In this document: one piece after another, positions 1-64,000 of the stretch
Numbering within the stretch: the first letter of the stretch is position 1
Layout of the letters: each line of letters opens with the position of its first letter
Assembly (NCBI GenBank): GCA_041694155.1
Contig: JASMTS010000014.1
Coordinates: 20,583 to 84,582 of the forward strand
Source: Candidatus Altimarinota bacterium
GTDB lineage: Bacteria > Patescibacteriota > Gracilibacteria > BD1-5 > UBA6164
Reading direction: 5' to 3'
DNA length: 64,000 nucleotides
Notes under the pieces: model-generated
The model's database searches: none
Told to the model about the DNA's origin: nothing
The model's input: only the letters and a program-made list of their open reading frames with translations
Translations under genes and position numbers: made by a program

Positions 1-548
1 TAAAAGATGAATGAGAAAAACTGGTAGCTAGTTGTAGAAGCCCAGAATACCACTCTATAATAGATACTCTTGATTGATATAAAGATTATTTTATAGCTTA
101 TGGAGGTCATAAGCAAGCAGCTTGATTTTCCATATCTAAGGATAAGTTTGCAGAATTTAAAACAAAAATAATAAATGAACTTAATTCTAAAGATTTTTCA
201 CATTACAAAAAAGAAATAAATATTGATAAGGTGGTTAAATTAGAGGAGTTATGATTTAATTTTTTAAGGGAAGTTAATAAATATAAACCTTTTGGTATAT
301 GAAATGAGAAACCGCTTTTTATGGTTGAAAATCTTGATTATGATAAGCTTGATTTTATAGGTAAATGAAGAGATCATCTTAGGTTTACTACTAAGCATTG
401 ATATAAAATATTTGCTTTTTATATGTGAGACTATTACGAGCAAATAAAAAGAAGTTCAACAAAACCTAGTTTGATTTTTGATATAAGTGAAGACTCTTGG
501 ATGTGAAAGAAAAATCTTATGCTAAAAGTTGTAGATATAATTTTATAA
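1..548 (+). CDS. recJ: single-stranded-DNA exonuclease RecJ, C-terminal part (5' end outside window)
   Basis: Open from nt 3 to TAA 546-548 with TGA=Gly. Translation contains FIAYGGHKQAAGFSISKDKF and KPFGIGNEKPLFMVENL, which are conserved RecJ C-terminal motifs. Confidence 0.7.
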
Positions 549-560
549 TAATATTTTTTT

Positions 561-1037
561 ATGGAAATATCTCAAAAAATAGTAGATTATGCTATATGGT
601 ACTATCTTAAATACTATCCATCTAAAAAAAAGCTATCAAAAAAGCTTATAGATAAATTTTGACCAAATAGTGAAAATGGTAAAAAATATTGAGGTATATG
701 AGGTGATGAAATATCTTATATTTTAGACAAAAAAATGTCTTCTATTATAGATGAGGAAGCAGTCATATTATCTAAAATAAGGTCATATAAGTCAAGATGA
801 AAATCAAAACTTTATATAAAGCAAAAGCTTTATGAAAGGCTTGAACCAAAAGAAATGATAGATGATTTTTTATATCAAGAATTTATAGATTGAGAAATGG
901 ATTCTTTAGAAAAAGAATATAATAAATTAAAATCAAAAATAAGAAATTATAAATCAGAAAATGAATACAAACAAAAGCTTATTCAAAAACTTATGATGAA
1001 ATGATTTAGTTATGATGATATAAAACAAATTATATAA
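561..1037 (+). CDS. recX: RecX-like regulatory protein
   Basis: 158 aa with TGA=Gly. Helical repeat protein ending KQKLIQKLMMKGFSYDDIKQII, resembling RecX three-helix repeats. Lies directly downstream of recJ. Confidence 0.5.
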
Positions 1038-1132
1038 AAGCTAGAATTTAGGTTCTAGTTTTTTTAATTTTGAAAAATAATCAAAAATATATAATATAAG
1101 ATATAGTTATTAACTTAAGATTATAAATACAT

Positions 1133-2392
1133 ATGTCTCAAACTATTATATGTCCTAATTGTTCTACAAAGATAGACTTAGATCAAGTAGCAAACCAAAA
1201 ATATAATGAACTTTTAAAAGAACAAGAGCAAAAACTTAGACAAGAACAAGCCAAACAAAAAGAAGAGTTTGATAAGGAGTTGGAAGAAAAGACCAAGGCA
1301 ATGAGAAAAAAAGCTCAAGAATATGCTGAAAAAAAAGCACTAGAAGCTAAAAAAGAAATGGAGTATGAGTTAAAAGATGTGCAAGAACAACTTCAAAAAG
1401 CACAAAAAGATAGGGAAGAAGCTAGGAAAAAGGAATTAGAATTTTTGAAAAAACAAAGAGATTTAGAGGATAAAGAAAAAAACTTTGAACTAGAGATGGA
1501 AAAAAAATTATACGAAGAAAGGAAAAACATTCAAAAAGAACTAGAATCAAAAATGGAAGAGTCATCAAAGAAACAAATGGATGAAAAACTTGAAAAAATA
1601 GCAGAAGATTATAGAAAAAAAGAGCTTGAAAATTACAAGCAACAAGAACAAATGAGAAAAACTATAGATGATTTAAAAAGAAAAGCAGAACAATGAAGTC
1701 AACAAATACAGTGAGATATTAGTGAGGATGATTTAAAAAATAGCTTATCACAATCTTTTCCTTATGATGAAGTTGAAGATGTTCCAACATGAATAAAATG
1801 AGCTGATTTAATTCAAACAATAAGAGATAATTTTTGACAAAAATCTTGAGTTATAGTTTGGGAGTCAAAAAATACCAAGTCATGGCAGGATGCTTGGGTT
1901 ATGAAATTGAAAGATGATAAATTAAAAGTAGGTTGAAATATAGCTATTTTGGTTACAAGTGTTTTACCAAAAGATATCAAACATTTTTGACTGGTAGATG
2001 ATATTATGGTTTGTTCTCCTGATTTTGCTATACATGTTGCCGGTATGCTTAGAGATAAACTTCTTTCTATATCTAAGGTAGAAAAATCTATGGAGTGAAA
2101 GGATGCCAAGATGGAAATGTTATATAAGTATTTATCGAGTGAAGAGTTTTCAAGTAAAATGAATATGATGATAGATGTTTTTTCTAATCTTAAGTCTTGA
2201 ATTGATGCAGAAAGAAGAGCTATGGAAAAAAATTGGAAAAAAAGAGAAAAAGATTTAGAAAGAGCTACTTTTGCTGTTAGCGGTATGTATTGAGAATTGG
2301 AAAGTCTTATGTGACAAAGTCTTCCTTGATCAAAAATGTTAGAATTAGATGAACCTGATTATGATGAAGATAAAACTGACTTAAAAAATTAA
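1133..2392 (+). CDS. DUF2130 family protein (N-terminal CxxC, long KE-rich coiled coil)
   Basis: Track ORF 1133-1696 continues in frame through TGAs to TAA 2390-2392 (419 aa). C-terminal region VWESKNTKSWQDAWVMKL...VTSVLPKD...MVCSP matches the DUF2130 pattern. Confidence 0.6.
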
Positions 2393-2402
2393 TAATTATA
2401 AA

Positions 2403-2816
2403 ATGTCTGAAAAAATGTCTTTTGATTTTGGTTCAAGAGAACCAACTTATAAGAGAAAAATATTAAAAAATATAATAGTAGATAGAAAAAGTAAGTATAG
2501 TGTTGTATGATGATTTGTATCTTCAAAGTCTGATGTAGATGATTTTATAAAAGACTTACTTAGTGATAAATACTTTAGAAAGTCTACTCATAATAGTTTT
2601 GCTTTTAGGGTGTGACTTGATAATTGATCAATATTAGAATCAAAAAATGATGACTGAGAAACATGAGCAGGTATGTGCATACTTAGAGAGCTTCAAAGAG
2701 AAAATATGATTAATGTAATAGTTGTAGTTACTAGATATTTTTGATGAATACATTTACAATCAGATAGATTTAAAAATGTTATTGATTGAACAAAATTAAT
2801 TTTAAAAGAAATTTAA
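2403..2816 (+). CDS. YigZ/IMPACT N-terminal domain family protein (UPF0029)
   Basis: 137 aa. Contains SKYSVVGGFV, HNSFAFRV, DDGETGAG and VVVTRYFGGIHL, all typical of the YigZ N-terminal domain. Confidence 0.7.
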
Positions 2817-2819
2817 AAT

Positions 2820-3476
2820 ATGAAAATAATAAAAAGTCTTGGTAAAAAAATAACTTTAAAAATTGATGAAACAGGTGAGCTTATAGTTAGGTCGCCTGCT
2901 TTTGTTAGTAAAAAAAAGGTACAAGAATTTATAGAAAAAAATAAAGAGTGGATAGCAGAAAAAAAAGATGAAGCTATAGAAAAGATAAAAGAATTTAGGG
3001 AGTGAGAAAAGTTTTATTTTTTCTGACAAGAGTATGAACTAGTCTTTGATGATGTTAGTGAAGATATTTATTATGATGGTATGAAGCTTTATTTACATAA
3101 AAGGCATAAAGTTGTAATTAAAGAAAAATTAATAGAATTTTATAAAAAAGAAGCAAAAAAATATATAGTTCCTAGAGTCAGAGAAATAGCATCCAAAAAT
3201 TGACTTGATTATAATATCGTAAAGATAACCAGTGCAAAATCTAGATGGGGAAGCTGTACAAACAAAAAAAATCTTAACTTTACATATAGGCTTATAATGG
3301 CTCCTACTAGATCTATAGACTATGTTATAATACATGAGTTGGCTCATCTTAAACATATGGATCATTCAAAAAAGTTTTGGGATTATGTTCAAGAGCTTAG
3401 TAGTTCTATGTATCCTTGAAGTTATAAAATAAATGAGCAATGGTTAAAGCAAAATGGTTCAAAGATAATGTATTAG
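2820..3476 (+). CDS. YgjP-like (DUF45, M48 family) metallopeptidase
   Basis: Track ORF 2820-3005 extends through TGAs to TAG 3474-3476 (218 aa). SRWGSC...IDYVIIHELAHLKHMDHSKKFW contains the HExxH zinc motif of DUF45 proteins. Confidence 0.75.
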
Positions 3477-3563
3477 TTTTTTACATTATTTTTACATTTT
3501 TTTAGTTTTTAACAATAAATGTTAAAAATAATTGTACACTATAATTTATAAATAATATATAAA

Positions 3564-4196
3564 ATGGAAATAAATAATTCTTTATTAAATGATTTTAAAA
3601 ATAAGGATTCTAAATTATTGGCAGTTACAAAGTATTTTGATAAAAATAAAACTAATGAATTATCTGATATATTGCTAAAAGATTATAATGATATTGTAAT
3701 ATGATTATGAGAAAATAGGGTTAATTCATTAAAAGAAAAAAATCTTGATAGAGAATCGACTCATTTTATATGAAATATTCAAACAAAAGAAATAAAGCAT
3801 ATAATAAAATATTGTATGTATATACATAGTGTAGATGATATAAAACAATTATATAAAATGGAAGAAATATGCTCTAAGTCATGAAATTGGATTCAGATTT
3901 TTCTTCAAATAAATATTGATGAGACAAAACCTGGTTGAATAGATATAAGTGATATACCAAAATATTTAGAAATAATATGAGACTTAGAAAATGTAAGCCT
4001 TATAGGATTTTCTTGAATAGGTAAAAGTGATTTTACTATCGAAGAAAAAAATAAAGAATTTCAATTATTAAAAGAACTTAGAAATAAATATTTACAAAAT
4101 TGACTTGTATCTGCTGGTACTTCTGTTGATTATAAAATAGCAATTGAAAATGAAATAGATATTGTAAGAATTGGTTCAAAATTATTTAATTTATAG
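3564..4196 (+). CDS. YggS-family pyridoxal-phosphate homeostasis protein
   Basis: 210 aa. LLAVTKY (PLP lysine), THFIGNIQTKE, IHSVD, SAGTSVDY and RIGSKLF follow the YggS/PLPBP pattern. Confidence 0.7.
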
Positions 4197-4200
4197 TTAT

Positions 4201-4836
4201 ATGAAAAAACAAATATTATTTATATGATGAGGAGAAGCTTTTGAAAATTTTTATAATAAAGACTTTATAAAAAACAAATTAGATTTTTATAAAAATGATT
4301 TTGATTTTAATCCATTTTTAGAGAAAACTACTAATTGGAAAGACTATTTATCTTTTGAATTGGAATCAAAATATGATTTTATAAAAATGTATAGACCTAT
4401 GTCAGATAGTGCTATTTATGATTTTTGGAAGATATCATTTGAAAAAACTCTGTATTTTTTGAATGAAAATCCTGTACTTATATGACATAGTCTTTGAGCT
4501 ATTTTCTTAATTAAGTATTTTTGTGAAAATCCTAAAGCTTTAAATAATATAAAAAAGATATTTTTTGTTTCTACACCTTTAAATGACTCTAAAGATGAAA
4601 TTTTATGAAGTTTTAATATTGATAAGACTCTTATAAATAATATATTACCATATCAAAGCAAATTTTCTTTCATTCATAGTTTAGATGATGAAATTGTTTC
4701 AAGTAATGATTTTTATGAACTAAAAAAATTGTTAAATAATTCAGAGTTTTATTCTTTTGATAATTATGGTCATTTTATTTTTAATGATGAATTCCCAGAG
4801 CTATTAGATTTGATAAAAAATATTGATTATGAATAA
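4201..4836 (+). CDS. alpha/beta hydrolase (YdeN/RBBP9-like serine hydrolase)
   Basis: 211 aa. Nucleophile elbow LIGHSLGA, later acidic residue SLDDEIV, and GHF near the C-terminus. Confidence 0.55.
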
Positions 4837-9074: not shown

Positions 9075-11207
9075 ATGGACGAAGTTAGCTTTCTTACACA
9101 AACTTTATCGGTTTTGTTTTTATTAGTAATTTGTTCTTTTTCTTATATTATCAGTAAAAAAATAAACTTTCCATATACAGTACTATTGGTATTGGTATGA
9201 ATTATTTTGGTACCTATTTCTCATATAGGTATTTTTTCTTTTATTGATGATTTCAAATTAACTCCTGATTTATTATTTTTTGTATTTTTACCAGTTTTAT
9301 TGTTTGAAGCTGCATATAATATAAATTATAGACAACTAATGACCAACTGGAAGGCTATAACCTGACTTGCGGTTTTTGGTCTTATTATTTCTGCTACAAT
9401 AGTTTCTACATCTCTTTATTTTTTATTTCCATTTTTTGGCCTTGAAATACCTTTTTTAGTATGTTTGCTTTTTTGAGTACTTATATCAGCAACTGATCCA
9501 GTAGCTGTATTATCAATATTTAAATCACTAGGTGCACCTAGAAGACTGACTATACTATTTGAATGAGAGAGTTTGTTCAATGACTGAACAGCAGTAGCAT
9601 TATTTTTTGTTATATTATGACTTATTCTTGAAGGTAGTGCCATAACATGAATGACTTATTTTGAGTGAACATTTATTTTTTTATCTATGGTAATATGATG
9701 AATACTGTTTTGATGATTTATGTGAATTCTTTTTAGTAAAGTTATATGATATATAAAAAATAATGAAGAAGTAGAAATAGTTCTTACAATGTTACTTGCT
9801 CATATTACTTTTATATTAGCTGAGTTAATTACTCATTATATACCATTTATACCTGTTTCAGCTGTTATATCTACTGTTGTCGCTTCTCTTATAATATGAA
9901 ACTATTGAAGGTATAAAATAACTCCTAGGGTAGAGGTTCATATGCAAAAATTTTGGGAGTTTTTTGCTTTTATATCTAACTCTATAGTTTTTATATTAAT
10001 GTGACTTATATTATCTAATATAAATGTAGATTTAAGTATTTTTATACTTCCAGTTTTAGTTAGTATATTAATTGTTGTTATAGCTAGAGTTATTTCTGTT
10101 TATATTCCATTAGGATTTCTTAATTGGACAAAATTAGAAGAAAAAATACCACATTCACGGATAGTGCTTTTATCTTGGGGAAGTCTTAGGTGAGCAATAG
10201 CTTTGGTTATGGTTTTATTGATACCTTGAGTTTGAGATCCTTCTTATGAAAAAGTATTAGCTTTTCAACAATCTGTAGGTTGGACATATGATTTTTCTAT
10301 AAAAGATTTCTTACTTGTCCTTACTATATGAAGTATAATGTTTACACTTTTTATAAAAGCTCCTACTATTCCTGCTATAATGAGAAAATATTGAGTTGAT
10401 AAGTTGCACAAATTGGAAGAATTTGAGTATGAAGAGTGAAAAATATTAGCCAATTTAAAAATATTACAAAAACTTAATACTTCATTTAAAAAAGCTTATT
10501 TAACACAGGTAGAATTTGACGAGTTACAAGAAAAATATAGTAAAAAACTAAGTTTGGCGGTATCAAATATGGAAAATATACTTAATGCAAAATGAGTAGA
10601 TTCTTATTCTCTTACAAAGAGAGCATTATCATTACATGCTTTGTGAATAGAAAAACAATATTTAAAGGAATTATTTTTTTATAATGAAATAGACGAAAAG
10701 AATTTTAAATATATATTTAGAAAAATAGAAAAACAAATAGAAAGATTAGAAAAATCAAATCAGCAATTAAGAAGTATATCTAAATTGAATAATGACTATG
10801 ATATTTTTTCAAGATTTGTTTTAGGTTTATACAAAAGAACTTCTACTGATTTAGATTCATATATTAGAAATAGAACAAGAGTAATAATAACAAGAAAAGT
10901 TATAAAAGAATTAAAAATATTATCTGATACAGAGCTTTGATTTGATAAAAAAATGTTTACAGAAATAATAGAGCTTTATTCTGGATTTAATAAACATGCT
11001 GATGAAAAGAGAATAAAAATATTTTCTTCTCACAAAGCTACTATAAATGCTGTTGAATCTAGACTTATAAATAAATCTCTTTTAAAATTAGAAGAAAAAA
11101 CTATCAAGGATTTGTATAATAAAGAAATAATTACTCCAAAATTATATATAAAATTTATGGAAGATATTGAAAAAGAAATGTATAGTGATGTAAAAAAGTT
11201 TGTTTAA
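9075..11207 (+). CDS. Na+/H+ antiporter, CPA1 (NhaP-type) with long cytoplasmic C-terminal domain
   Basis: 710 aa. Contains LFEAAYNI, ISATDPVAVLSIF and FEGESLFNDGTAVALF, which are signature CPA1 motifs. In frame with track ORF 10953-11207. Confidence 0.85.
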
Positions 11208-11301: not shown

Positions 11302-11988
11302 ATGAAAATAGATAATTTAACTCTATCTTTTAGAAATAAGGTTATTTTAAAAGATATTGATATAGAGATAAAATCATGAGAATTTGTTTTTATAATAGGT
11401 CATTCAGGTAGTTGAAAAACATCACTTATAAGATCTTTGATATGAGATTTTGCACCTGAAAGATGAGATATAATACTAGATAGTAATCTAGCCTTGTATA
11501 AATGAATGACAAAAGATACTTTGTTGTCTTATAGGAGAGATATAGGAGTTATTTTTCAAGATTATAAATTATTAGAATCAAAAAAAGTATATGAAAATGT
11601 TGCTTTTGCTATGGAAGTTTGTTGATATAGTGATAATTTAATAAGAAAAAAAGTACCAGAGGCTCTTGAAAAAGTAGGTTTGCTTATCAAGAAAGATAAA
11701 TTTGTTTTTGAATTAAGTTGATGAGAAAAACAAAGAGTAGCTATAGCTAGAGCTTTGGTTCATGATCCAAAAATAGTTATAGGTGATGAACCTACTTGAA
11801 ACCTTGATCCAGAAACTGCCAAAGAAATAATGGATATTTTTCTTGACTTAAATGCAGAATGAAAAACTATTATAATGGCAACCCATGATTCGAATATTGT
11901 TAATAATATCAAGAAAAGAGTAATAACCTTCCACGATAGAAAAGTTATAAGTGATAATGTTAATTGATATTATAATTTGGAAATATAA
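11302..11988 (+). CDS. ftsE: cell-division ABC ATPase FtsE
   Basis: 228 aa. Walker A GHSGSGKTS (second Gly is TGA 11413-11415), signature [15 protein letters not shown], Walker [14 protein letters not shown]-loop ATHD. Confidence 0.85.
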
Positions 11989-15864: not shown

Positions 15865-16605
15865 ATGATAAAAAAAATATTATTTATATTCATATTTTTT
15901 TCTATTATTCCTATTTGATATTGATGTAAATATTCATCAGAAATAAGTCAGTGTAGCTCTGAAGTAGAAAAGTTTTTACCAAAAGATTGAAGTGGTTTTA
16001 TATGAATATGATCTTCTATAAAATGATTTGATGATTTTGTTTGTTTGCAAGCTCCACCTGAAATAAGAATAGCTCAAATAGCAATGGATATGAATTTTAG
16101 AGAAATTGATAAAGAGGTTGATGAATATCTTGCAGATCTTGAAAGTAATAAGGATATGTTTTTTTGAGAGAGTTCTCAACTTAACTATTATCAAGGAGTA
16201 GATTATATATATGATAAAGTTAATGAGTTTGAAGAAAAGTATAAATCTGCCTGTAAAACAAGTATAGAAGAGTCATGAGAGTGTACGAAAAATTTGCTTT
16301 ATGATGACTCTGATAAACAATCATCAATAGGTGTAAACGAAGCTATTAAGTATCTTTGAGATTGAAAATGATGATGATGATGAGAGTGTTATAAATTAGT
16401 TGATATAAAAACAGATATTTTATCAAGTGTTAGCTATAATATACTGCTTTTGAATCAACAATCTGTACAAAAAGATCAGCAAACTTTGTATGAACAAGAA
16501 ACAAGAACTAAATATAATAAAATTTTGGATATAATGATGATAAATTTAGGTTATATAGAGAGAATATGGCAAAAAACTCCTAGTTTTACAAAAAATCCAT
16601 TATAA
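15865..16605 (+). CDS. secreted/lipoprotein, Cys-containing, hypothetical
   Basis: 246 aa. Signal peptide MIKKILFIFIFFSIIPIGYGC. Five consecutive in-frame TGA codons at 16369-16383 give a Gly run. Confidence 0.5.
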
Positions 16606-23479: not shown

Positions 23480-25363
23480 ATGGATTTAAAAAATATTAGA
23501 AATTTTTGTATTATTGCTCATATTGACCATTGAAAATCTACACTAGCTGATAGATTGTTAGAAATAACATGAACACTTGATAAAAGATGAATGAAGCATG
23601 GTCAAATGCTTGATACAATGGACTTGGAACAAGAAAGAGGTATAACCATAAAATTGCAACCTGTTAGAATGTATTGGAAATGATATGAACTTAATATTAT
23701 AGATACTCCGGGTCATGTAGACTTTCAATATGAAGTCTCAAGAAGTCTTGCTTCAGTTGAATGAGCATTATTGATGGTTGATGCTACTCAATGAATAGAA
23801 GCTCAAACTCTTAGTAATGTTTACATGGCTATAGAAAATGACTTAGACATAATACCTGTACTAAATAAAATAGATCTTCCAGCAGCTGATGTGGAAAAGG
23901 TAAGTGAAGAAATAATAAATTTACTTGGTTGTGATAAATCTGATATAATTCCTGTTTCTGCTAAAACATGAGAAAATGTAGAATTAGTATTAGATGCTGT
24001 TCTTGATAGAATCAGTGAACCTCAAGTATATGAATCAACTGGTAAAATAGAAAATGATGAATTAAAAGCTCTTGTTTTTGATAGTCAGTATGACCCTTAT
24101 AGATGAGTAGTAAGTTATGTAAAAGTTTTTAAGTGAGAAATCAAAAAATGAGATTCTCTAACTTTTTTACATACCAATAAAAAAATAGAAGCTCAGGATG
24201 TTTGATATTTTTCTCCAACTTATATAAGTGATAAAAAAATAGAAAATTGATCTGTTTGATATGTAGTAACTGGTCTAAAAAACCTGGAGAATGCAAAAGT
24301 TTGAGATACTTTATGGAAACCAGAAGATAGAGAATGACCAAAAGATAAAGCTGAGGAAGCAAAACCTATAGAGTGATTTAGTGAAGCAAAACCTTTTATA
24401 TATGCGGGTATTTATCCTATGGATAGTAGTGAATATCCTCAATTGAAGGATGCTATGGAAAAACTCTTATTAAATGATTCGGCTCTTAGTATAGAATCTA
24501 GTGTATCTCAAGCATTATGACATTGATATAGATGTTGATTTTTATGATTACTGCATTTAGATATAGTAAAAGAAAGGTTATTTAGAGAGTTTGATATGGA
24601 TGTTATAATGACATCTCCACAAGTTACTTATAAACTTAAGTTTTATTGAGATAAATCTTCTGAATATAATAGATTTAATCCTGAAGTATTTGATTTTGAA
24701 TGAAAAACATATACTTATATTTATGTTTCTAGTCCTGAAGATTTACCAGATAGGGAAAAATATTTAACAATAGAAGAGCCTATTGCAAAAGTAGAAATAA
24801 TAACTCCAAGTGAATATGTAGGTCCTCTTATGCAACTTTCTCAAGAAAGAAGATGAAAATTTTTGAATCAACAATTTATAGATACTTCTAGAGTAATGTT
24901 AGTTTATGAATTACCTATGAATGAGCTTATATGAGATTTTTATGATGAAATAAAATCTTTGTCTAGTTGATATGCATCTATGAATTATGAATTTTTGAAA
25001 TACAATGAGGATGATATGGTTAAACTAGATATATTAATAGCTGATGAAAAAGTTGAAGCTCTAGCTTTTATAACTCATGCAGATCAAGCTCATTATCTAT
25101 GATGAAAACTTTGTGCAAAATTAAAAGAAACTGTACCAAGAGCACTTTTTGCTATAAAGATACAAGCTGCCGTTTGATCAAAAGTAGTAGCTAGAGAAAC
25201 TCTTAGTGCACTTAGAAAAGATGTAACTGCAAAACTTTATGGTTGAGATATTACTAGAAAGAAAAAGCTTTTGGAAAAACAAAAAAAAGGTAAGAAAAAA
25301 ATGAAACAATTTGGTAATGTTAGTCTTCCTAGTGAAGCATTTGTGAATTTATTAAAAAAATAG
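23480..25363 (+). CDS. lepA: translation elongation factor 4 (LepA)
   Basis: 627 aa. Contains [22 protein letters not shown] (the Gly is TGA 23531-23533), [14 protein letters not shown] and a C-terminal LepA-specific domain. Confidence 0.95.
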
Positions 25364-27265: not shown

Positions 27266-28078
27266 AAAGATGATACTATATATTCATGATTATTATTAGC
27301 TCAAGAAATGGAAAAAACATCTTGATCAGTGATTTTAGAGTCAAGTAATTTTGATCCACTCAATTTGACATTAAAAGAAACTATTACTTTAAATAGCAAT
27401 TATGATGGCTCACGTGATGCTAATTTTTCTCCATGGGATATTGCTTGGTATGAACCTACAAATGAAATATTATATTCTTTACATTGATACGGTTGTAATA
27501 GTTCTATTTATAAATCTTCAAATAGATGAGTATGATATACTACACATAGTATAATGGCTAACCATTGTTCAGGGGTAGGTAGTGTTGGTTCTACAGTAGT
27601 AGCACAGCATTATAGCTCAAATACAAGTTGACAAGATGCTTCATACGGAACTATAGATAGTATAAATTCTCAATTTAATACTGGTTGAAGATTTTACTGA
27701 TGAACTCCAATAGCATGAGATATATCAACCGATTCTATTTGGCGGGCTAATACTGCTTGTTGAACTTATAATTGGAGTTGTAAAAATTCTATAAGCAGAT
27801 TTTCTAACTCTGGTTCATGACCTCTTGAAACTATATATTTAGATTGATTTAGTGGTGGTATTGATAGTTTTGCTATGTCAGATAAATATATACTTGTTGT
27901 TAAATGGTCTACTAGTGATTGAAAGATTCATATTTATAATAGAGATTGAACTTATAATTGAGAGGTTTATATATGAAGTCCCATTAATTTTAGATGAATA
28001 ACTTATAACCATATAGATAAAGAGGTTTATTTACTAGAAAAAAGAAACTCTTGATCTGTTTTATATGTTTTAGATTAA
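26693..28078 (+). CDS. type IV pilin-like protein 1 (prepilin N-terminus, novel Cys-containing C-terminal domain); no canonical start codon
   Basis: 461 codons open from just after TAA 26687-26689. N-terminus (I)INTNKKGFTLVELIVVITILTILG has the class III signal with Glu at +5. Codon ATA 26693 aligns with the ATG of the paralogue. Confidence 0.6.
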
Positions 28079-28108: not shown

Positions 28109-28690
28109 ATGCTAAACATTAATAAAAAAGCTTTCACTTTAGTAGAATTAATAGTAGTAATAACAATACTAGCGATACTATGAACGATATGATTCATATC
28201 ACTACAATGATATAGTAGTGAAGCAAGAGATAGTAAAAGAGTAACAGACTTATGACAAATAAGAACAGGTATCCAAGTATACCAAGCCAAAGAATGAGTA
28301 GTACCAGAACCAGATGAAACAAAAACAATAATATGAAGCTGAACAACAAACCTAGTAATCCAATGATATGCTTGAACTTGAACACTAAGAAATATCAAAG
28401 TAAATACTGATGCCAAAGATCCACTAGAAGATAATTACTACACATACTCAACCAACTGAGCAAAAACAAAGTTTCAACTACTAACATTATTAGAAAATAA
28501 TAATACAGCATATAACAATATAATCCCAAAAACATATGCTAATTATGAAACAAGAGAACCATATGCAATATGAGATAAATTATGAATATTACTAGACTCT
28601 ACAACTAATACACCAATTCAAGAACTATGAGAAACAGATATAGACTTGAATACAAACACAACAGAATATAAAGCAATATTTTCAAAATCA
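28109..28690 (+). repeat. shared pilin N-terminal module, copy 2
   Basis: Paralogous to 26693-27265 (see copy 1). Confidence 0.8.
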
Positions 28691-29410
28691 GATATTCAAA
28701 CACTTAGCTGAACACCATTATATGAAGAAATAGTTACAAAAAGTAATAATGAATGAGTAGAAGAAGAAAATATAGTATATTCAAGCTGTAAAGAAATACT
28801 TGATAACTGAGCTAGTACATGAGATGGAACATACACAATAGACCCAGAAAACGACTGAGTATGATTTGAAGTATATTGTGATATGACTACTGATTGAGGA
28901 GGGTGGACTAGAATTACACAAGAACTTTCAAAAGATATATTAGGTGTTTCTTTTGAAACTCCTTATTGATGAAATGTTAGTTGGGATAATTATAAAATAA
29001 AGATGTGACATAGTTCAAATGTTTCAGTAGATTGAAGAGCTGTAATCAATATACTTTTTGGTTATCAAGAGTTTTTTCTTTCTAATTATAGCCGGAAAGA
29101 TGTTAGTCCTTGAAGTGATACCTGGGACACTAATGATAGTGATGTAAATAATATTTATTCTTCAAATTGATCTGATAGTACTGCTTGAGATATAACATTT
29201 TGAACTTACAGTAATAACTATCCAACTGTATCAATATATGAACAATGATGATGAGGTAGTTCTGCTGATGCTACATTTAATTTTCCTTCAAATGGTATTA
29301 TTTTTGATAACGGTATAATATCTAATGACTTTGTTATTCGTTGAACTGAAGATGGAGGTCAGGTAGAATATGCTTATGTTTGGAATACTGGTTATATTTG
29401 GGTTAGGTAA
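28109..29410 (+). CDS. type IV pilin-like protein 2 with C-terminal fibrinogen-like YCDxxxxGGGW domain
   Basis: 433 aa. Prepilin motif MLNINKKAFTLVELIVVITILAILG. Residues encoded at 28784-28915 read SCKEILDNGASTGDGTYTIDPENDGVGFEVYCDMTTDGGGWTRI. Confidence 0.8.
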
Positions 29411-31048: not shown

Positions 31049-32197
31049 ATGGCAAAAAATGATTTAGCTCTGTTTGAAGAGTTGTTTGCTGCATCTCCTG
31101 AAATTAAATATCCTAAACAAGGAGAAGTTATTTCTGGTACTATAGTAAAAATAGAAAAGAAAAATATATTGGTAAATGTTAACAATCAATTTACTGGACT
31201 TGTTGTTTCAAAAGAAGTAGGTAACACTATTGATATAAATGAATTACAAGCTGGTCAAGCTATCGATGTTATGGTTTTGGGTGACTCTGTAGAAAGAGGT
31301 TTATTAATTCTTTCTCTTAAAAGAGCTAACCAAATCAAAAACTTATCAAATCTTACTAAATACAATGAAAACAGTGAAATTATTACTGTTAAACCAACTG
31401 AAGCTAATAAATGAGGTTTATTAGTAGATATTGATGGGTTAAAAGGTTTTATACCTGTTTCTCAATTAACTCCTATTCACTATCCAAGAGTAGAATGAGC
31501 TGATCCTGAAAAAATTCTTGCTCACTTAGACGGTCTTGTTGGTGAACCTTTCAAAGTAAGAGTTATAAATGTAGACGAAGCTGGTAAAAAAATTATATTC
31601 TCAGAAAAAGCTGCTATTGAAGAAAATAGAGAAAAAGCATTAAGCACTTTAAAAGAAGGTGATGTAGTTGAAGGTACTGTTTCAGGTATATTATCATATG
31701 GTTTATTCGTTACTTTTGATTGATTAGAAGGTTTAGTTCACGTTTCTGAAATAGATTGGGGGCATGTTACAGATCCTTCAAAATTTGCTAAAGTATGAAT
31801 GAAAGTAAAAGTAAAAGTTATAGGACTTGATAGCGAAAAAATTTCACTATCTATAAAGAGATTAAAAGAAAACCCTTGGGATACTCTTGCAAAAAAATAC
31901 AAATTGAATGACTCTATTACTGCTCCAATTTCAAGAATTTCAAAATTTGGTGCGTTTATGGATTTAGAAGGTGGTATACAAGGTCTTATTCACTTATCTG
32001 AAATATCTCACGGTGTTGTTAAAGATATAAGAGATCATGTAAAAGTAGGTGAAGAAGTTACTGCTAAAATAATCAATTTTGAACCAGAAAAGAAAAGAAT
32101 TGGTTTATCTTTAAAAGCTTTACAAGAAGCTCCTAAAGAAACAGAAGCAAAAGAAGAAACTAAAAAAGAAGAAAAAGAAGAAGAATCTTCTAAATAA
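31049..32197 (+). CDS. rpsA: 30S ribosomal protein S1 (short form, four S1 domains)
   Basis: Track ORFs 31049-31414 and 31799-32197 are one frame joined through TGAs (382 aa). Repeated S1 motifs are present (G.V..I...G..V, GLVHVSEI, GLIHLSEIS). Confidence 0.85.
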
Positions 32198-32218
32198 TTT
32201 TTAAAATTTAAAATAAAT

Positions 32219-32254
32219 AATAACTCTGGGAAGTTATAAAAACACAGAGTTATT
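32219..32254 (+). other. hairpin between rpsA and rpsB (terminator/attenuator or rpsB leader structure)
   Basis: AATAACTCTG / CAGAGTTATT 10-bp stem with a 16-nt loop and no clear T tract. Confidence 0.3.
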
Positions 32255-32320
32255 ATATTAAGGCTATCCTGTCTATATTTAGATATGCCTGCTTTATATA
32301 ATAATAAACTTAAGGAAAAT

Positions 32321-33121
32321 ATGAATAAAACAGTATTAAATAAAATGTTTGATAATTTATTACATATAGGTAATAAATCTAACTATTGGAATCCAAAAAT
32401 GAAATCTTATATATATGGATCAGTTAATGGTATCCATGTTATAGATTTAACTAAAACTGCTGAAAAATTAGAAGAAGTTAAATCAGAAATAAAAGAATTA
32501 CACGAATCAGGTAAAAAAATATTATTTGTTGCTACAAAGTTACAAGCAAGAGATTCTATAAGTAAATTAGCTAGTGATTCAGGTCACTACTATGTTGCCG
32601 AAAAATGGGTTCCTGGTTTGTTAACAAACTTCAAAACTATTAAAAAAAGAATTTCTACATATATCAAATTATCAAAAGATTTAGAAAATGGAGCTTTTGA
32701 TATGTTAACTAAAAAAGAAAAAGCAGCAAAAATGCTAGAACATGAAAAATTAGAAAAAGCATATGCTTGAGTAAAAGACATGAAAAAATTACCAGATGTT
32801 GTTTTTGTTGTTGATGGTGTATATGAAGATCAAGCTGTTAGAGAAGCTAACTCTCTAAATATCAAATCATTTGCTATACTTAATACAAATGGTGATGATA
32901 CTTTAGTAGATAATTGTATACCTTCTAACACAAATGCAGTTAAATCAATAGAATTTTTAGCTAATGAATTAGCTGGTTCTCTAAAAGGTACTGCAAAAAA
33001 AACTAATACTGCTAGAGTTAAAAAAGTAGATGATAAAAAAGTTAGTGGTGAGAAAAAAACTACTAGAAAACCTGCTGTAAAAAAAGCTCCAGCTAAAAAA
33101 GAAGAATCACAAGAAAAATAA
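32321..33121 (+). CDS. rpsB: 30S ribosomal protein S2
   Basis: 266 aa. Start taken at ATG 32321, preceded by AAGGA. LLHIGNKSNYWNPKM, GIHVIDL, ILFVATK and VFVVD...AVREA are typical of S2. The Lys-rich tail continues through a TGA into track ORF 32780-33121. Confidence 0.9.
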
Positions 33122-33184
33122 TATTGCAATTTTAGAGGAATAATTATTATATAGTTATTCCTTATTCTTTAAAGAAATAAAAAT

Positions 33185-33511
33185 ATGAATAATAGTGAAA
33201 GCCATAATGAAAGAGTAAAAAATGCTCTTTGTTACATACCTATCGTAGCTTTTGTTTTATTTTTTATAGAAGAAAATAAAACACCAGACTTAGATAGAAA
33301 TATCAAATACGGTATGATATTTTTCTGAGTGTATTTTATACTTACTCTTATAATATCATGGTTGTTTACTGGTTTATTATTTTTGATTTACATTTGAATT
33401 AGTATATATTTTGGTTACAAAGCATATAATGGTGAAGATGTAAAAGTAGAATTTATTGATAATTTATTAGAAAAAAATTCTAATAATTCAAATAAAGAAA
33501 AAAAAGACTAA
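33185..33511 (+). CDS. small membrane protein (two TM helices), hypothetical
   Basis: 108 aa. ALCYIPIVAFVLFFIE and a second hydrophobic segment. Lies between rpsB and tsf. Confidence 0.45.
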
Positions 33512-33538
33512 TTTTATAATTTAATACTAATTAAAATT

Positions 33539-34324
33539 ATGGCAATTACAGCTGCTCAAATAAAAGAATTAAGAGAAATTACAGGTATCGGTATGATGGA
33601 ATGTAAAAAAGCTCTTACTGAAACAGATGGTGATATGGAAAAAGCTATTGAAGAATTAAGAAAAAAAGGTTTAGCAAAAGCTGCTAAAAAATCTGATAGA
33701 GATACTTTTGAAGGTGGTATTAAAATACTTACTGAAGGTAATAAAGCTTATGTTGTATCTGTTTCTTGTGAAACTGATTTCTTAGCTAATTCTGATAAAT
33801 TTAAAGCTATGTTAGAAAAAGTAGCTGAATTTTTAAAAGAAAATGGTGCTGATTCAAAAGAAGCTGCTCAAGAATTCATCAATTCTAACTATGCATTAGA
33901 AATGGGTGAGAACTTACAAATATCTAACTACAAAATAGTAGAAGGTGATGTTGTAGCTGAATATGTTCACTCTAATGGTAAATTAGCTGCATTGGTAGTT
34001 GCTAAAGATGGAACTGATCAAGAAAAAGTTAGACAAGTTGCTATGCATGTAACTGCAAGTAATCCTGAATACTTATCTCCAGAAGAAATTTCTGATGAAG
34101 CATTAGAAAAAGAAAAATCTATTCAATTAGAAATGATGAAAAATGATCCAAAAATGGAAGGTAAACCAGAAGATGTATTGTTAAAAATCATCGAAGGTAA
34201 AATGGGTAAATTCAAATCTGAAATCTCATTAACTGAACAACCTTTTGTTATAGATCCAAATACTAAAGTAAAAGATTTTATCTGAGAAGGTAACTTACAA
34301 GCTTTTTATAGATTTTCTATATAA
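33539..34324 (+). CDS. tsf: translation elongation factor Ts
   Basis: 261 aa. Contains ITAAQIKELREITGIGMMECKKALTETDGDMEKAIEELRKKG (UBA-like N domain) and SCETDFLANSD. Extends one TGA past track ORF 33539-34285. Confidence 0.9.
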
Positions 34325-34363: not shown

Positions 34364-34438
34364 AGTCCCATAGTTAAACGGCTATAATTCAGGACTCCAA
34401 ATCCTGCGTTCTAGGTTCGATTCCTAGTGGGACTGCCA
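34364..34438 (+). tRNA. tRNA-Trp (anticodon CCA)
   Basis: Acceptor AGTCCCA/TGGGACT, anticodon stem CAGGA/TCCTG with loop CTCCAAA, T arm CTAGG-TTCGATT-CCTAG, discriminator G, encoded CCA. Confidence 0.9.
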
Positions 34439-41756: not shown

Positions 41757-42422
41757 ATGATAGAAGAAAAAACATTTAGTGATATTAGAAGAAATTATAT
41801 ACTATCATCTGTGATATTTATTTTATTTCTTATTTATTGATGAAGAATAGAAATAAATAAAATTCTATTTTTTGATTTAAGTTGAGAATGGTATTATTTT
41901 TCTCCTTTTATAGATATATTTATATTGCTTTTAATTTTCTTTTTATATACATTTATTAGATATATAATTTATGCTAAATATGAAATTAAAGAGAAATGAT
42001 ATTATTTTAATAGACTATATAGATGAATAAAAAATACTAATATTGATGATTATTCTAAAAAAATATATATTAATGAAAATAAAAAAGAAATTATATTAAA
42101 TTGAATATCTATTAATAAACGGAGTGGTAAAAATGAATTAGAATTACAATTATCCTATAAAGATTGAAATATAAGTTGAACTAACATTAGTATAAAAAAA
42201 ATAAAACAATATTCTTTTAATAAAAATGAAATAACTTTTGAGTTCTTATGAAGTAAAGTTATTTTAAGAACAAAAGAATGAAAAAATAATTATTTTAAAA
42301 CAGACTATTCAAAGTTTGTCTTTGATTTGGATTATTCAAATTTTATTTGGCCATTATCATTAATTTTTATAATATATTTTATATTAATTGTTAAACTTAC
42401 ATACTTCCTATTTTATAACTAA
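41757..42422 (+). CDS. membrane protein, hypothetical
   Basis: 221 aa with N- and C-terminal TM helices flanking a soluble region of about 110 aa. Confidence 0.4.
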
Positions 42423-42609: not shown

Positions 42610-42975
42610 TTAGTCAGTCAGCTCTAGGTAAGCTTTGAATTGCTTTCTGAGGACTGTTAGTTTGAAGGGCTTATCAACTACTATAGTTCTAACTATAGCA
42701 GTAAAGCCTACTTCATCATTTTTTGTGTCTTCTGTCTGGCCTTTTATTATTTCAAATGAGCCAAACCTTACCAAAAATTCAGTTATAGAGTCAAAAAGAC
42801 TCCCACTAAAATACAAGCGAAGGAGAACTGGTTTTTCTCCTTTGTCTATATAGTTATGCTTACTCTTTTTTTCTACTCTTTTTTTGAAGTTTTGGTAAAT
42901 CTTTTCTTTTTCTTCCTGGCTTAGTTCTTTTTTTGTACATAGCTGAGGAAGAGCCATATGAAGATGTTTTTTCAT
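42610..42975 (-). CDS. hypothetical protein, compositionally foreign
   Basis: Track ORF of 121 aa. No TGA codon (Gly codons are GGA, GGG and GGC x3). Uses C/G-ending codons that are rare elsewhere in the window. AGGAG lies 7 nt upstream of the ATG. Confidence 0.5.
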   Translation of the reverse strand: MKKHLHMALPQLCTKKELSQEEKEKIYQNFKKRVEKKSKHNYIDKGEKPVLLRLYFSGSLFDSITEFLVRFGSFEIIKGQTEDTKNDEVGFTAIVRTIVVDKPFKLTVLRKQFKAYLELTD

Positions 42976-43106
42976 TTTTTTACTCCTTTTTTGTCAAAAA
43001 ATGTTCTTACATAATAAAATAAAAATTATTTTAGTCAATTTTAGTTTGCATATAATCATTTTTTATCTAATATAATAAAAAGAAATATTATATTTTTAAT
43101 CATCAT

Positions 43107-49465: not shown

Positions 49466-50860
49466 TTGCAAGAAATATTAGATGTCATAGAATTAATTGA
49501 TAGATCAATAAAATTTAACCCAGAAAATTCTATAACAGCATGAGAAATTATAGCTGATTGATATGACGAACAGGTAGATAAATATAGAGAAGCTATAAAT
49601 TATTCTCAAGAGTGGTTAATTGACTATCAAAATAAAATCTCTGTCGAAACAGATATATCAAATCTAAAAATAAAATATACAAATGCTTCTTGATATTTTA
49701 TAGAAGTACCAAAATCCCAAACATCAAAAATACCGGACTCTTTTATACATAAGCAAACTTTAGTAAATGCTTCTAGGTATATAACTGTTGAGTTAAAAGA
49801 ATTAGAACAAAAAATAATAGAAGCTCAAACTAATAAATCTTCTAGAGAATATGAAATATTTCTGGATATAAGAGAAAAAATATTAGATAAATATGTTTAT
49901 ATAAAAAATGCAAGTGATATTTGTTCTAATATAGATTTTATATCAAGTCTTTCTCATGTTGCTTATAATAATAATTATATAAAACCAGATATAAGTGATA
50001 ATTATAATCTAGATATAATTTGATGAAGGCATCCTATTATTGAAAAAAGTGTTACTGACTTTATTAGTAATGACTTAAACATGTCAAAGAAAAGCTTTGT
50101 TCATATTATAACATGACCTAATATGTGAGGTAAATCTACTTTTTTGAGGCAAAATGCACTAATTATACTGATGTCACATATATGATCTTTTGTACCAGCT
50201 AAGCAAGCAAAAATACCTCTGACTGATAGTATTTTTTCTAGAATAGGAGCCAATGATAATTTGTTTTTGGGGCAATCTACATTTATGGTAGAAATGCAGG
50301 AAGTCGCTAATATATTAAATAATTCAACAAAAAATAGTTTTGTTATAATTGATGAAGTAGGTAGATGAACAAGTACTTATGATGGGATGAGTCTAGCTTG
50401 GGCTATATTGAAACAAAATCATGATAAAATAAATGCAAAAACTTTATTTGCTACTCATTATCATGAACTTATAGATGAATCTAATAAATTGAAGTGAGTA
50501 AAAAACTTTTCAGTAGCAGTTTGAGAAAATGAGGAAAATCTAGTTTTTTTGAGAAAAGTAGTAGAGTGATGAATAAAAAAATCATTTTGATTAGAGGTAG
50601 CTAGAATAGCATGACTTGGTGATGATATAATAAATGAAGCAAAAAATATGTTAGATTTTTTGGAATCAGAACACTCAAATACTAAGCAACAACAACTCGA
50701 TATAACTAGTCTAGAAAAGAATAATTATAAAGAAAAAATAGTATATCGTGATAATGAAGTATTACAAAAAGTTAAAAAAATGGATATAAATAATATGACT
50801 CCTATAGATGCTTTTAATGAATTATATAAAATTAAAAATCAATTAGATGAAAAAAAATAA
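49466..50860 (+). CDS. mutS: MutS-like ATPase lacking the N-terminal mismatch-binding and connector domains
   Basis: 464 aa from TTG 49466 (the frame opens only at 49430). Covers the core/clamp region and the ATPase domain: [41 protein letters not shown]. In frame with track ORF 50648-50860. Confidence 0.75.
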
Positions 50861-51941: not shown

Positions 51942-51943
51942 AA

Positions 51944-52408: not shown

Positions 52409-52804
52409 ATGATAAAAAAATATACCATAGATAATATAAATAAGTTGGATTTACCTATAAATAAGCCAAGTTTAATATTTTTAAAGGGTGATTTGTGAGC
52501 ATGAAAAACTACTCTAAGTAAACATATTTTTAATAATTTATTAGGTATAAAAGAAGAAATAATATCACCTACTTATACTTATTATAATAAATACCTTGAT
52601 AATTATCACTTTGATCTATATAGGTTATGAAGTTATGACGAGTTTTTTGCTATTTGATGAGAGGATGTGTTAGATAATAATACATGAGTAATACTTGTAG
52701 AATGGCCTGATTATATAGAAGATTATTATTCACCAGATTTAGTTATAAATATAAATAAGACAGATAATGATAACGAGAGGGAACTAGAAATAATAGAAAA
52801 ATAA
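52409..52804 (+). CDS. tsaE: tRNA t6A37 biosynthesis ATPase TsaE
   Basis: 131 aa. Contains LKGDLGAGKTTL (two TGA glycines), ISPTYTY, HFDLYRL and ILVEWPD. Confidence 0.8.
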
Positions 52805-61700: not shown

Positions 61701-62093
61701 CCTTGATTTACAGCATTATATTTGTTTAATAATGAATATTTCTCAGCTACTAGTATGATTTGAATAATTGCACTATGATGAATAGTCGTTTGAAATGCCA
61801 TAATTCTTATAGATTATTTGAATATATTAAAGAAAAATGGTCTTACTATGGCTGATGCTTTATTAAAAGCTTGATATGCAAGGTTTGCTCCTATTATACT
61901 TACTAGTCTTACCACTGTTTTTTGAGCAGCAACTATTATATGAGATCCTGTATGGTCTGGTCTTGCTCGGACTGTTATATGGTGACTTTTATTTAGTAGT
62001 ATTCTTACTTTGATAGTTATACCTATATTTTATTATGATAGTCAAAAATCAGAATGGGAAAAATGTGCATGAATAGATGAAAAGAAGTGTTAA
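58800..62093 (+). CDS. RND-family efflux permease (AcrB-like)
   Basis: 1097 aa. Contains PKQYNPTIVVPAFEIQ, LGMIVDNSTVVVENISRHL and ATITRLLAFGSMF. Twelve-TM two-repeat layout. Confidence 0.85.
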
Positions 62094-62097
62094 AAAC

Positions 62098-62127
62098 AAA
62101 AAAACCTAATTTTTATTAGGTTTTTTT
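62098..62127. terminator. bidirectional hairpin terminator
   Basis: AAAAAAACCTAAT / ATTAGGTTTTTTT stem. Confidence 0.6.
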
Positions 62128-63232
62128 AATTGTTTTCCTTATATATTTCTATAGCTCTTTTAATTTCTTCTTTTGTTTTTCATTTTGCTTTTAATTCTTT
62201 TTTTAATGCTTTTATCTGTCTTTGCAACTTTTTTGATTTTTTTTGTTGTAACCTCAATTCTTCTTCTAATCAGATTGATTTTTTTACTGTATTGTTTTTT
62301 TCTGTTTCAGATTTTATTAACTCTTGTTTAAGTCTTTCTATTTCTTTATTGGCTTTATCTATATCACTTTCTTGTTCTAATTCAACTAATTCAAAAGTTT
62401 CCATTCTTACTGAATCTATGTCTCATGATTTTATTATATTTACTGATTTTCTTTCTTCTTTTTGTTCTTCATTTTTTCTTGGTCTAATTATTTTTTCATT
62501 TTTTAATAAACTTTCTATATTAGAATTTATTTTATATCATCATCAATTAACTTTTAATATGATTCATTTATTTATTAAGTAGCTTATTAATATTCTCATT
62601 GTTTCATATCATTGTCATAGTTTCTCAACTTTTTCAACTAAAATATCATCAGTTATTTTTTCATCAGGAAATCTTATATTCAAAATTTTTGATATTTCTC
62701 AAAAATTGATAAATTTATTTACTACATCTTCTAGTTTTAAATTTTTTCAATCAATTCAGTTTTGTAATAATATTTCTACTATTTGCTCTAATTTTTCTTC
62801 ATAATATTCAGATTCACTTTTTGCATTTTCTATTTCTCTTTTGTCATCTATTCTATAATTTAATAATTCTCATATTCTTTGTTTGTAGTAATCTATTGCC
62901 TCTAATGCTTCATTATTAATTATTTCATTTTGTATTTTAGTTTTACTCAAGTTATGGCTTAAAATCAGAGATAATGCTTGATAAAATAATAATTCATTTT
63001 TTATAGCTTCTTTGGAGTTATTAGTTGTAGCAATTCTATTTATTTCTTGATTCAAAAAATCTAAAAAGTGTTCATTTGCTATTAAATCAATAGATTTTTC
63101 AACTTCTGAAGCTAAAAATCTCATTTTTAATTCATTATCACTTTTATAGTTAGATAAAAAAGCTTCTCTTAGTTCATTTATGATATTTTTATATCATTCG
63201 TATATGTTGTATTGATCAAAATTATTAATCAT
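62126..63232 (-). CDS. coiled-coil protein, hypothetical
   Basis: 368 aa on the minus strand. Includes track ORF 62870-63124. The C-terminal third is KE-rich coiled coil. The plus-strand track ORF 62130-62582 is the antisense artefact. Confidence 0.45.
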
Positions 63233-63382
63233 GATAATTATTTTATTTTATATATATTATCTATAATAACACTTTATTTTGTTTTGAACAAAAAAATAAT
63301 ATTTATTTTTATAAATTAACTTTAAAAAATACTAAAAATAAATACAATAACTAGCAAAAAGTTATTTTTTAATTTAATTTTA

Positions 63383-63757
63383 ATGAAAAAGAGATTTCTC
63401 CTATTTCTTATATTTATCATTTTTTTGTTATCATCTACTACATTATTTTTGATATTAAATTATTTAGATCCTTATGAGTATAAAATTCTTTCAATAACTT
63501 TTATTATTATTAGTTTTTTATTGACTACTACATCGTTTTTTACTCTTTTGTTATATATTATAAAAAAAATATATTTTAGAGGTAATATTTATATTTATCA
63601 TGTCTTATCTAGTTTTAGACAGTCATTTTTTATTAGTATATTTTTTATCAGTTTAATATATTTTAATTATTTTTGAGCTCCAATTGCTATAACATGATTT
63701 TTTTCTTTTTTATTACTATTTTTTTTAGAATTATTTATTAAAAATCAAGAAAGCTAA
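63383..63757 (+). CDS. membrane protein, hypothetical
   Basis: 124 aa. Track ORF 63383-63676 extends through two TGAs to TAA. Four hydrophobic segments. Confidence 0.4.
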
Positions 63758-63888
63758 AATGTCAATTGCTATTCTTTGAAAAAATATAAAAAATAGCTTA
63801 AAATATAACTGTTAACTTAATTTTCTAATAAAAATATTTTGCACAAAATATATATATCATTTTTGATTGTTTTCTGATTTATAATTCA

Positions 63889-64000
63889 TTATTGATTTGT
63901 ACATGCTCTTACAAATTCGGATAAATGAGCAATATTAGAAAGATTTCAACAACAACAATATGAATTATTATTTGAATCTGAATTATCTGAGTATAATTGA
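63889..64000 (-). CDS. C-terminal fragment of a gene entering from the right edge (hypothetical)
   Basis: The minus-strand frame is open from the window edge to TAA (complement of 63889-63891). It ends ...NNNSYCCCGNLSNIAHLSEFVRACTNQ. Confidence 0.25.

Follow-up and report, generated by a model that had tools for sequence, protein, structure and literature searches.

UGA as the majority glycine codon, and CGG as a very probable tryptophan codon, in a Gracilibacteria genome

Bacteria of the Gracilibacteria and SR1 lineages translate UGA as glycine, a code that is listed as NCBI table 25 and for which Rinke et al. 2013 is among the works cited. Here we describe the reading of UGA, and of the rare codon CGG, in a stretch of 64,000 nucleotides (the window; C14:20583-84582) that forms part of a 1.06-Mb assembly in 16 contigs, together with the transfer RNAs (tRNAs) and the release factor (RF) encoded elsewhere in that assembly. 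That UGA is glycine in this lineage is established biology and was already known: proteomic work on an enrichment of BD1-5 has proven the assignment (Hanke et al. 2014, PMC4032931), and BD1-5 genomes without RF2 have been reported (bioRxiv 10.1101/595074). The present genome matches the SR1/Gracilibacteria code in reading UGA as glycine through a tRNA-Gly(UCA) with G1-C72, C2-G71, G3-C70 and U73, in having RF1 without RF2 and only UAA and UAG as stops, and in being a small, low-G+C genome of the candidate phyla radiation whose nearest relatives are metagenome-assembled genomes (MAGs) of Gracilibacteria; it differs in degree only, TGA being here the majority glycine codon (75%). With table 4, the code of Mycoplasmatales, Entomoplasmatales and insect endosymbionts, it has in common the loss of RF2, a low G+C content and the capture of UGA by a tRNA with a UCA anticodon, but UGA is glycine here, not tryptophan, and TGG and TGA are not synonymous. 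A second group of reassignments concerns arginine codons, for which Codetta gave CGA and CGG as tryptophan in Absconditabacteria and predicted CGG as tryptophan in some Gracilibacteria (PMC8629427). Table 25 appears not to be the whole code of the genome described here, as CGG also appears to have changed from arginine to tryptophan.

Assignment of UGA to glycine

The first-pass annotation had taken UGA to be glycine and table 25 to be the right base code, and had called the open reading frame (ORF) track under the standard code fragmented. Both statements hold, as every coordinate offered for them proved exact and homologue alignments, a tRNA with anticodon UCA and the absence of RF2 all agree; ORFs of at least 150 amino acids number 4 in the window under table 11 and 58 when TGA is sense, and the pattern as a whole goes well past anything that chance would give. 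Gene prediction under different tables gives the same picture for the whole genome, where coding density, taken as the share of the genome under non-overlapping ORFs of at least 100 amino acids, is 7.9% under table 11 versus 90% with only TAA and TAG as stops. Completeness of the assembly is 94.7% and contamination 1%, and the G+C content is 24% overall (22-26% per contig). In-frame TGA occurs at 40-77 per 1000 codons on each of the 16 contigs, so that it does not come from a contaminant island. Across positions 1-64000 the 57 called genes of the window hold 826 in-frame TGA read as glycine and end in TAA or TAG, and in the genome 790 of 882 called genes terminate with TAA and 87 with TAG, in keeping with the earlier claim that genes close only with these two codons. 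Furthermore, the alignments of 108 genes extend to the C-terminal end of a standard-code homologue, and in these genes the TAA or TAG follows at a median distance of 1 codon, with a median of 8 in-frame TGA upstream of it; since the stops match the ends of the homologues and TGA lies upstream, TGA is not a stop. The contrary proposal, that UGA retains its usual role as a stop and that the ORFs are broken through pseudogenisation or through assembly or sequencing error, has in its favour solely that table 11 is the bacterial default. It would leave the genome with a coding density of 8% and put 18 stops inside the sole release-factor gene and 29 inside lepA, each at a conserved glycine, and the pattern is repeated in independent MAGs of other studies; the proposal is already refuted and retains practically no probability.

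The amino acid at UGA was identified with a tally similar to that of Codetta, in which the genome was translated with TGA as X and searched by BLASTP against standard-code reference ORFs, first those in some 200 kb of E. coli K-12 sequence and then in addition those of 54 standard-code loci around lepA. Glycine stands opposite TGA in 60% of 1279 residues with E. coli alone and in 59% of 8620 with all references, and GGA and GGT give the same glycine share. Where columns are conserved (at least four references with agreement of at least 75%), TGA falls on glycine in 203 of 250, as the control codon GGT does in 101 of 125, so that the residues opposite TGA are neither tryptophan nor random, and all other sense codons with enough data keep their standard meaning against these references. 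In a leave-one-codon-out likelihood comparison with relatives, glycine is preferred over the next residue at TGA by 5708 log-likelihood (lnL) units. Taken together with the tRNA and release-factor evidence below, we regard it as virtually certain that UGA is glycine throughout the genome, and no finding of substance speaks against it.

Table 4, in which UGA is tryptophan as in Mycoplasma and several insect endosymbionts, opens the same ORFs as table 25, and the genome is small and very AT-rich like those of table-4 users. The residue tallies contradict it: tryptophan makes up 0.3% of the residues aligned to TGA, identical to its share for GGA, does not figure in the list of residues for the 250 conserved TGA columns, and in columns where tryptophan is itself conserved TGA is found in 2 of 54. 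TGG, which had been said to remain a tryptophan codon, is opposite tryptophan in 35-42% of its aligned residues, and the tRNA-Trp(CCA) that reads it was confirmed at 34364-34438 (plus strand); it has A1-U72 and G73, and its anticodon stem is of the normal 5 bp. Profile hidden Markov models (HMMs) point the same way, the LepA model (TIGR01393, cut-off 534) scoring 838 bits with TGA as glycine, 771 with alanine and 748 with tryptophan, and the RND permease 363 bits with glycine versus 285 with tryptophan. FtsE (TIGR02673) is the best family match for its gene at 240 bits with glycine, under the equivalog cut-off of 265, and with tryptophan no family is recovered at E<=1e-60. Finally, the tRNA with anticodon UCA carries U73, G1-C72, C2-G71 and G3-C70 and not the A1-U72 and G73 of tRNA-Trp. 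Tryptophan at UGA is already refuted by the alignment tallies and has next to no chance of being right.

The glycine assignment is seen most directly in motifs whose glycines are invariant, and all positions of this kind in the first-pass annotation were confirmed. On the plus strand TGA encodes the Walker A glycine of FtsE (GHSGS-G-KT, 11413-11415; family match), the G1-motif glycine of LepA (AHIDH-G-KST, 23531-23533, in a gene with 29 TGA), two Walker A glycines of MutS domain V (T-G-PNM-G-GKST, 50114-50116 and 50126-50128) and two P-loop glycines of TsaE (GDL-G-A-G-KTT, 52496-52498 and 52502-52504). The five consecutive in-frame TGA at 16369-16383 (plus strand; GGGGG in translation) are present in the sequence as described and form the only run of five in the genome, where runs of two number 633. 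With TGA as glycine the families MutS domain V, TsaE, RND permease and RND/HlyD-type adaptor are found, the last two being the RND and HlyD-like genes of the earlier reading. A further unrelated family with a conserved glycine written TGA is the fibrinogen domain, found in a pilin-like gene at 28109-29410 that has an N-terminal methylation motif and a fibrinogen C-terminal-type domain with the motif CDMTTDGGGW; TGA at 28895-28897 (plus strand) is the first glycine of CDMTTD-GGG-W, written TGA GGA GGG TGG, and the domain aligns to FIBCD1 and intelectin structures at E values of 1e-8 to 1e-7. It had also been claimed that reading TGA as glycine fuses the short ORFs into full-length genes, and this needs correcting for the MutS-like ORF (49466-50860, 464 amino acids), which comprises only domains III (partial), IV and V and is not a full-length MutS. 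Neither mismatch-binding domain I nor connector domain II was found upstream of it, where the neighbouring gene lies on the opposite strand. A +1 split of MutS at 50847-50860 was considered and rejected, the site being merely a 14-nt overlap of two genes (ATGAAAAAAAATAA) with no frameshift.

The placement of the genome rests on LepA loci. The nine LepA loci nearest by identity are 71-77% identical and all nine contain in-frame TGA; six are titled as Candidatus Gracilibacteria MAGs and three carry the generic titles Patescibacteria or 'uncultured bacterium'. The earlier placement in Gracilibacteria or Absconditabacteria is thus borne out by nearest relatives that are Gracilibacteria MAGs, and we are highly confident that the source is a Gracilibacteria (BD1-5) bacterium using the SR1/Gracilibacteria code.

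Decoding of UGA and use of glycine codons

Two further checks concerned the decoding machinery, which lies outside the window. A tRNA with anticodon UCA was found by ARAGORN and Rfam on another contig, at C5:9375-9453, and shares with the genome's own tRNA-Gly(UCC) the pairs G1-C72, C2-G71 and G3-C70 and the base U73, which constitute the bacterial GlyRS identity set, while it is without the A1-U72 and G73 of the genome's tRNA-Trp. Of 41 relatives 39 possess it, among them all 36 of high quality, and across 30 genomes, with 15 distinct sequences between them, the identity positions do not vary. On these sequence features the genome encodes a dedicated tRNA(UCA) with predicted glycine identity. 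Only one release-factor locus was found (C12:5253-6332), and in BLAST searches with RF1 and RF2 of E. coli it is nearer to RF1. Its product exceeds the cut-offs of both RF1 models of NCBIfam (490 and 482 bits), fails the RF2 model (290 bits versus a cut-off of 370) and carries PET and GGQ motifs, and the gene itself holds 18 in-frame TGA. The gene for RF2, prfB, is absent: in the genome and 20 relatives the RF2 model exceeded its cut-off in 0 of 21, with 10 bacterial controls positive. The genome has a single class-I release factor, an RF1, the reservation to be set against it being that the absence of RF2 was established on a 94.7%-complete assembly and 20 relatives. In the mechanism that we envisage, GlyRS would charge tRNA(UCA) despite its A36, and after the loss of RF2 this tRNA would have had no competitor for UGA.

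A less clear-cut reading, in which UGA is ambiguous, being mostly glycine but at times a stop or tryptophan through near-cognate tRNA-Trp(CCA), or in which tRNA-Gly(UCA) reads UGG by U-G wobble, is improbable in our estimation, and several observations nevertheless lean towards it. A tRNA with U34 could in principle wobble to UGG (PMC8629427), BD1-5 proteomics recorded single peptides with tryptophan, alanine, aspartate or lysine versus 40-97 with glycine (PMC4032931), and highly expressed genes avoid TGA, which could reflect a cost of reading it. RF2 is absent, so there would be no termination at UGA, and gene ends agree with those of homologues at TAA or TAG. In the non-overlapping gene set used below for CGG, TGG is replaced by TGA no oftener than by other codons. 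Furthermore, anticodon stems of 4 bp are known to make decoding looser, and a tRNA-Trp(CCA) with such a stem reads UGA in Blastocrithidia (PMC13092985); the tRNA-Trp of this genome has the normal 5-bp stem, not that UGA-reading form.

Unambiguous glycine at UGA remains the reading that we prefer, and under it the use of TGA relative to the other glycine codons can be followed through the genome. TGA accounts for 15,111 of 20,157 glycine codons (75%), and among recoded relatives its share climbs as G+C drops, from 26% at 35% G+C to 77% at 22% G+C, a trend that fits AT mutation pressure. The share is 39% in translation and transcription core genes (those matched by E. coli ribosomal proteins, EF-Tu, EF-G, RNA polymerase subunits, NusG and SecY) versus 72% in other conserved genes (Fisher p = 6e-46). 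Ratios of TGA to GGN are 3/36 in EF-Tu (C12:29748-30938), 8/53 in EF-G (C12:97244-99391) and 4/69 and 5/74 in two S-layer-like proteins of more than 1100 amino acids (C12:50617-53973 and C12:55575-59273), all TGA-poor genes outside the window in which GGT is used. In the window TGA is largely avoided at 31049-34324 (plus strand), where the genes of S1 (4/27), S2 (1/12) and EF-Ts (1/16) lie with a 108-amino-acid ORF (33185-33511; 2/4), and it is because S1, S2 and EF-Ts avoid TGA that two of the four long table-11 ORFs are found there. These observations can be reconciled if AT-biased mutation drives GGN towards TGA, which would give rise to the 75% share, and if selection retains GGU in the most highly expressed genes; GGU would then still be translationally preferred, and TGA would build up by drift. 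As a separate observation, a small ORF at 42610-43059 (minus strand), for which no Pfam family match was obtained, has a G+C content at third codon positions of 0.28 against about 0.12 in its neighbours, almost no TGA and a foreign composition.

CGG as a probable tryptophan codon

Codons of the CGN box are all but lost from the genome: among 313,458 codons CGT occurs 175 times, CGG 59, CGC 14 and CGA 9, compared with 7521 AGA, and an excess of CGG over CGA in a genome of 24% G+C is odd if both are arginine. We aligned orthologues with a 971-kb contig of one relative, G001, whose LepA is 75% identical, and with part of another relative, and tallied CGG on a non-overlapping gene set from which antisense ORFs were left out. 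Opposite the CGG codons of this genome the relatives have CGG 15 times, TGG 12 times, TAT twice and an arginine codon never, and opposite the CGG codons of the relatives this genome has TGG 20 times, CGG 15 times and AGA 3 times. Other arginine codons behave as such, the control CGT being aligned with CGT 35 times and AGA 22 times, and AGG with AGA in 424 of 671 cases. In the leave-one-codon-out likelihood test, here restricted to one observation per site and to unambiguous relative codons, tryptophan is found at 10 and tyrosine at 2 of 12 CGG sites, and tryptophan is preferred over arginine by 93.8 lnL units; CGT, CGC, AGG and AGA all return arginine in the same test and TGA returns glycine. 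A tRNA(CCG) that could read the codon is encoded at C6:254596-254672 and is conserved in 20 genomes of the family. In 19 distinct sequences its A1-U72 and G73 are invariant, with compensatory changes in 13 of 22 pairs, and these Trp-type acceptor features are also those of the genome's tRNA-Trp. We consider it very probable that CGG is read as tryptophan.

Several points weigh against this assignment. Only 12 sites have an unambiguous relative codon, and distant standard-code homologues, which supply 18 aligned residues of mixed identity, some of them from antisense ORFs, give no clear tryptophan signal. In the unusual D-loop of tRNA(CCG) (AAUUAGAA) an A occupies the position of A20, which is the main element by which ArgRS identifies its tRNAs. 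Replacing arginine by tryptophan at CGG in five window genes shifts HMM scores by only +0.1 to +0.7 bits or leaves no family hit to score, which is uninformative. A structure-database alignment speaks for neither reading, the CGG site of the fibrinogen-like pilin falling outside the aligned core.

The same facts can be put together as plain table 25, in which CGG is still arginine and its exchange with TGG is a frequent C/T transition, and for this one may cite that three identity elements of ArgRS are present in tRNA(CCG), namely C35, G36 and the A in the position of A20, and that a few CGG sites are opposite arginine in distant homologues. No arginine codon is found, however, at 24 CGG sites in the gene set, in comparison with AGA at 22 of 88 for the control CGT, and TGG is not among the nine commonest partners of AGG in its 671 alignments. 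The 93.8 lnL units separating tryptophan from arginine, and the abundance of CGG (59) over CGA (9) and CGC (14) at 24% G+C, which is the wrong way round for synonymous arginine codons, also contradict it, as does the invariance of A1-U72 and G73 in a tRNA(CCG) whose other acceptor-stem pairs covary. An unchanged arginine meaning is accordingly improbable, and the working code of the genome is, on this comparative evidence, very probably table 25 with CGG as tryptophan.

Two other accounts of the CGG data were dismissed. Our first tally used all ORFs of at least 50 codons and thereby included antisense ORFs, in which sense CCG/CCA (proline) mimics CGG/TGG and TCA/CCA mimics TGA/TGG; an example is the antisense 'site' at 23708-23710 (minus strand), which lies opposite lepA. 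When the tally was repeated on the gene set the CGG signal was cleaner and the TGG/TGA excess was gone. A quadruplet or frameshift reading at CGG, prompted by the 9-nt loop of tRNA(CCG) in this genus, was also rejected, given that in alignments with relatives the frame is kept on both sides of every in-frame CGG and that orthologues differ in frame at few places, at no junction of which CGG is found.

In the window five in-frame CGG codons are found. Those in a Na+/H+ exchanger gene (10158-10160, plus strand), where G001, the closest large relative, has TGG and which we read as tryptophan, and in the RND permease gene (61968-61970, plus strand), where G001 also has CGG, have counterparts in that relative; the others are at 27743-27745, 29093-29095 and 42120-42122. 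Elsewhere, a protein of 4284 amino acids (C12:135007-147861) has four CGG codons, all of which are CGG in G001.

CGA amounts to 9 codons in the genome, none of which was aligned in the gene-set tally, and in relatives of higher G+C CGA is still aligned with AGA. A tRNA(UCG) was not found in this 94.7%-complete assembly. The assembly as a whole contains only 30 tRNA genes, with none found for valine, Arg(UCU) or Gly(GCC) though AGA (7521 codons) and GGT (3691) are much used, and a truncated tRNA lies at the end of contig C2 (C2:52262-52313). The tRNAs that were not found are probably in assembly gaps, and the absence of tRNA(UCG) is therefore weak evidence. A tRNA-Arg(GCG) just upstream of the window (C14:18401-18478) has the anticodon loop CCGCGAA, with C for the near-universal U at position 33, and the anticodon loop of tRNA-Arg(GCG) in G001 is the same.

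Compared with the reassignments described in PMC8629427, the present genome shares a low G+C content, a very rare CGG that interchanges with TGG, a tRNA-Arg whose anticodon is GCG and not ACG, and, as a tRNA of its own, tRNA(CCG) with G73. It differs from the Absconditabacteria of that work in that only CGG is assignable here, CGA amounting to 9 codons, and it differs furthermore in that tRNA(CCG) has retained an A in the position of A20 and would therefore fail that paper's simple tryptophan identity rule.

The long anticodon arm of the two new decoders

The tRNAs that would decode the two reassigned codons have a structural feature in common. Of 29 tRNAs reported by ARAGORN, only tRNA(UCA) and tRNA(CCG) have an anticodon arm of 19 nt instead of 17 nt, with the D-stem one position further from the anticodon and an extra C-G pair on the anticodon stem. 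In tRNA-Gly(UCA) this gives a 6-bp anticodon stem and a 7-nt loop, a form that unaided minimum free energy folding predicts. Among 15 distinct sequences, which come from three families of the order, the stem is 100% paired, with one compensatory change (C-G to U-A) at the extra pair. In tRNA(CCG) five pairs of the anticodon stem covary strongly, and at the sixth, proximal to the loop, 12 of 19 sequences have A.C and the remaining 7 have U.G, C-G or A-U; the molecule of this genome may equally be drawn with a 9-nt loop. The same tRNA has a T-loop of UGCAAUU, with G at 55, and the AAUUAGAA D-loop without a G18-G19 pair, both invariant in the 19 distinct sequences.

The 79-nt form of tRNA(UCA) is present in all three families of the order. 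A class-wide covariance-model search for tRNA(UCA) returned this form only in those three families, and elsewhere mostly tRNA-Gly(UCC). One tRNA(UCA) from another order (locus L203 in genome G060) is 77 nt long and has the glycine acceptor set, but its anticodon stem is of 5 bp with an A.A mismatch next to it, and two nucleotides separate this stem from the D-stem, which suggests that the architecture of the UGA decoder differs between orders.

According to a review, natural 6-bp anticodon stems are confined to tRNA-Sec, tRNA-Pyl and mitochondrial tRNA-Ser(UCN) (PMC7609411), and a 2026 survey of 4-bp stems treats code-25 genomes without mention of longer ones (PMC13092985). No description of a long anticodon arm in code-25 tRNAs was found in the searchable literature, Campbell et al. 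2013 being outside that search. Like tRNA-Sec and tRNA-Pyl, tRNA-Gly(UCA) combines a 6-bp anticodon stem with the reading of a former stop codon. In other respects it differs from the tRNAs of that list, its cloverleaf being an ordinary one of the 7/5 type in which the variable loop has 4 nt, the T-loop is normal, and neither a long variable arm nor an 8-bp acceptor stem occurs. Nothing here implies a partner of the SelB or PylRS type, and the likeness is a resemblance in one feature and not membership. As a speculation, and one that we hold to be rather less than an even chance, the longer stem may be a functional adaptation that tightens decoding, keeping tRNA-Gly(UCA) off UGG and tRNA(CCG) off CGA as part of codon capture.

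These results bear on how the window is to be annotated. A table 11 annotation of it is useless, table 4 gives tryptophan for glycine at 826 window positions, and table 25 gives arginine in place of what is very probably tryptophan at 59 positions of the genome, 5 of them in the window; other findings on the window should therefore be read with table 25 and CGG as tryptophan. No new kind of system is involved. The genome instead illustrates the aftermath of stop-codon capture, in which a former stop would have been made the majority glycine codon by mutation pressure and is yet avoided in EF-Tu, EF-G, S1, S2, EF-Ts and S-layer-like proteins. Finally, the lengthened anticodon arm common to the two new decoders is a candidate determinant of the stringency with which they decode.

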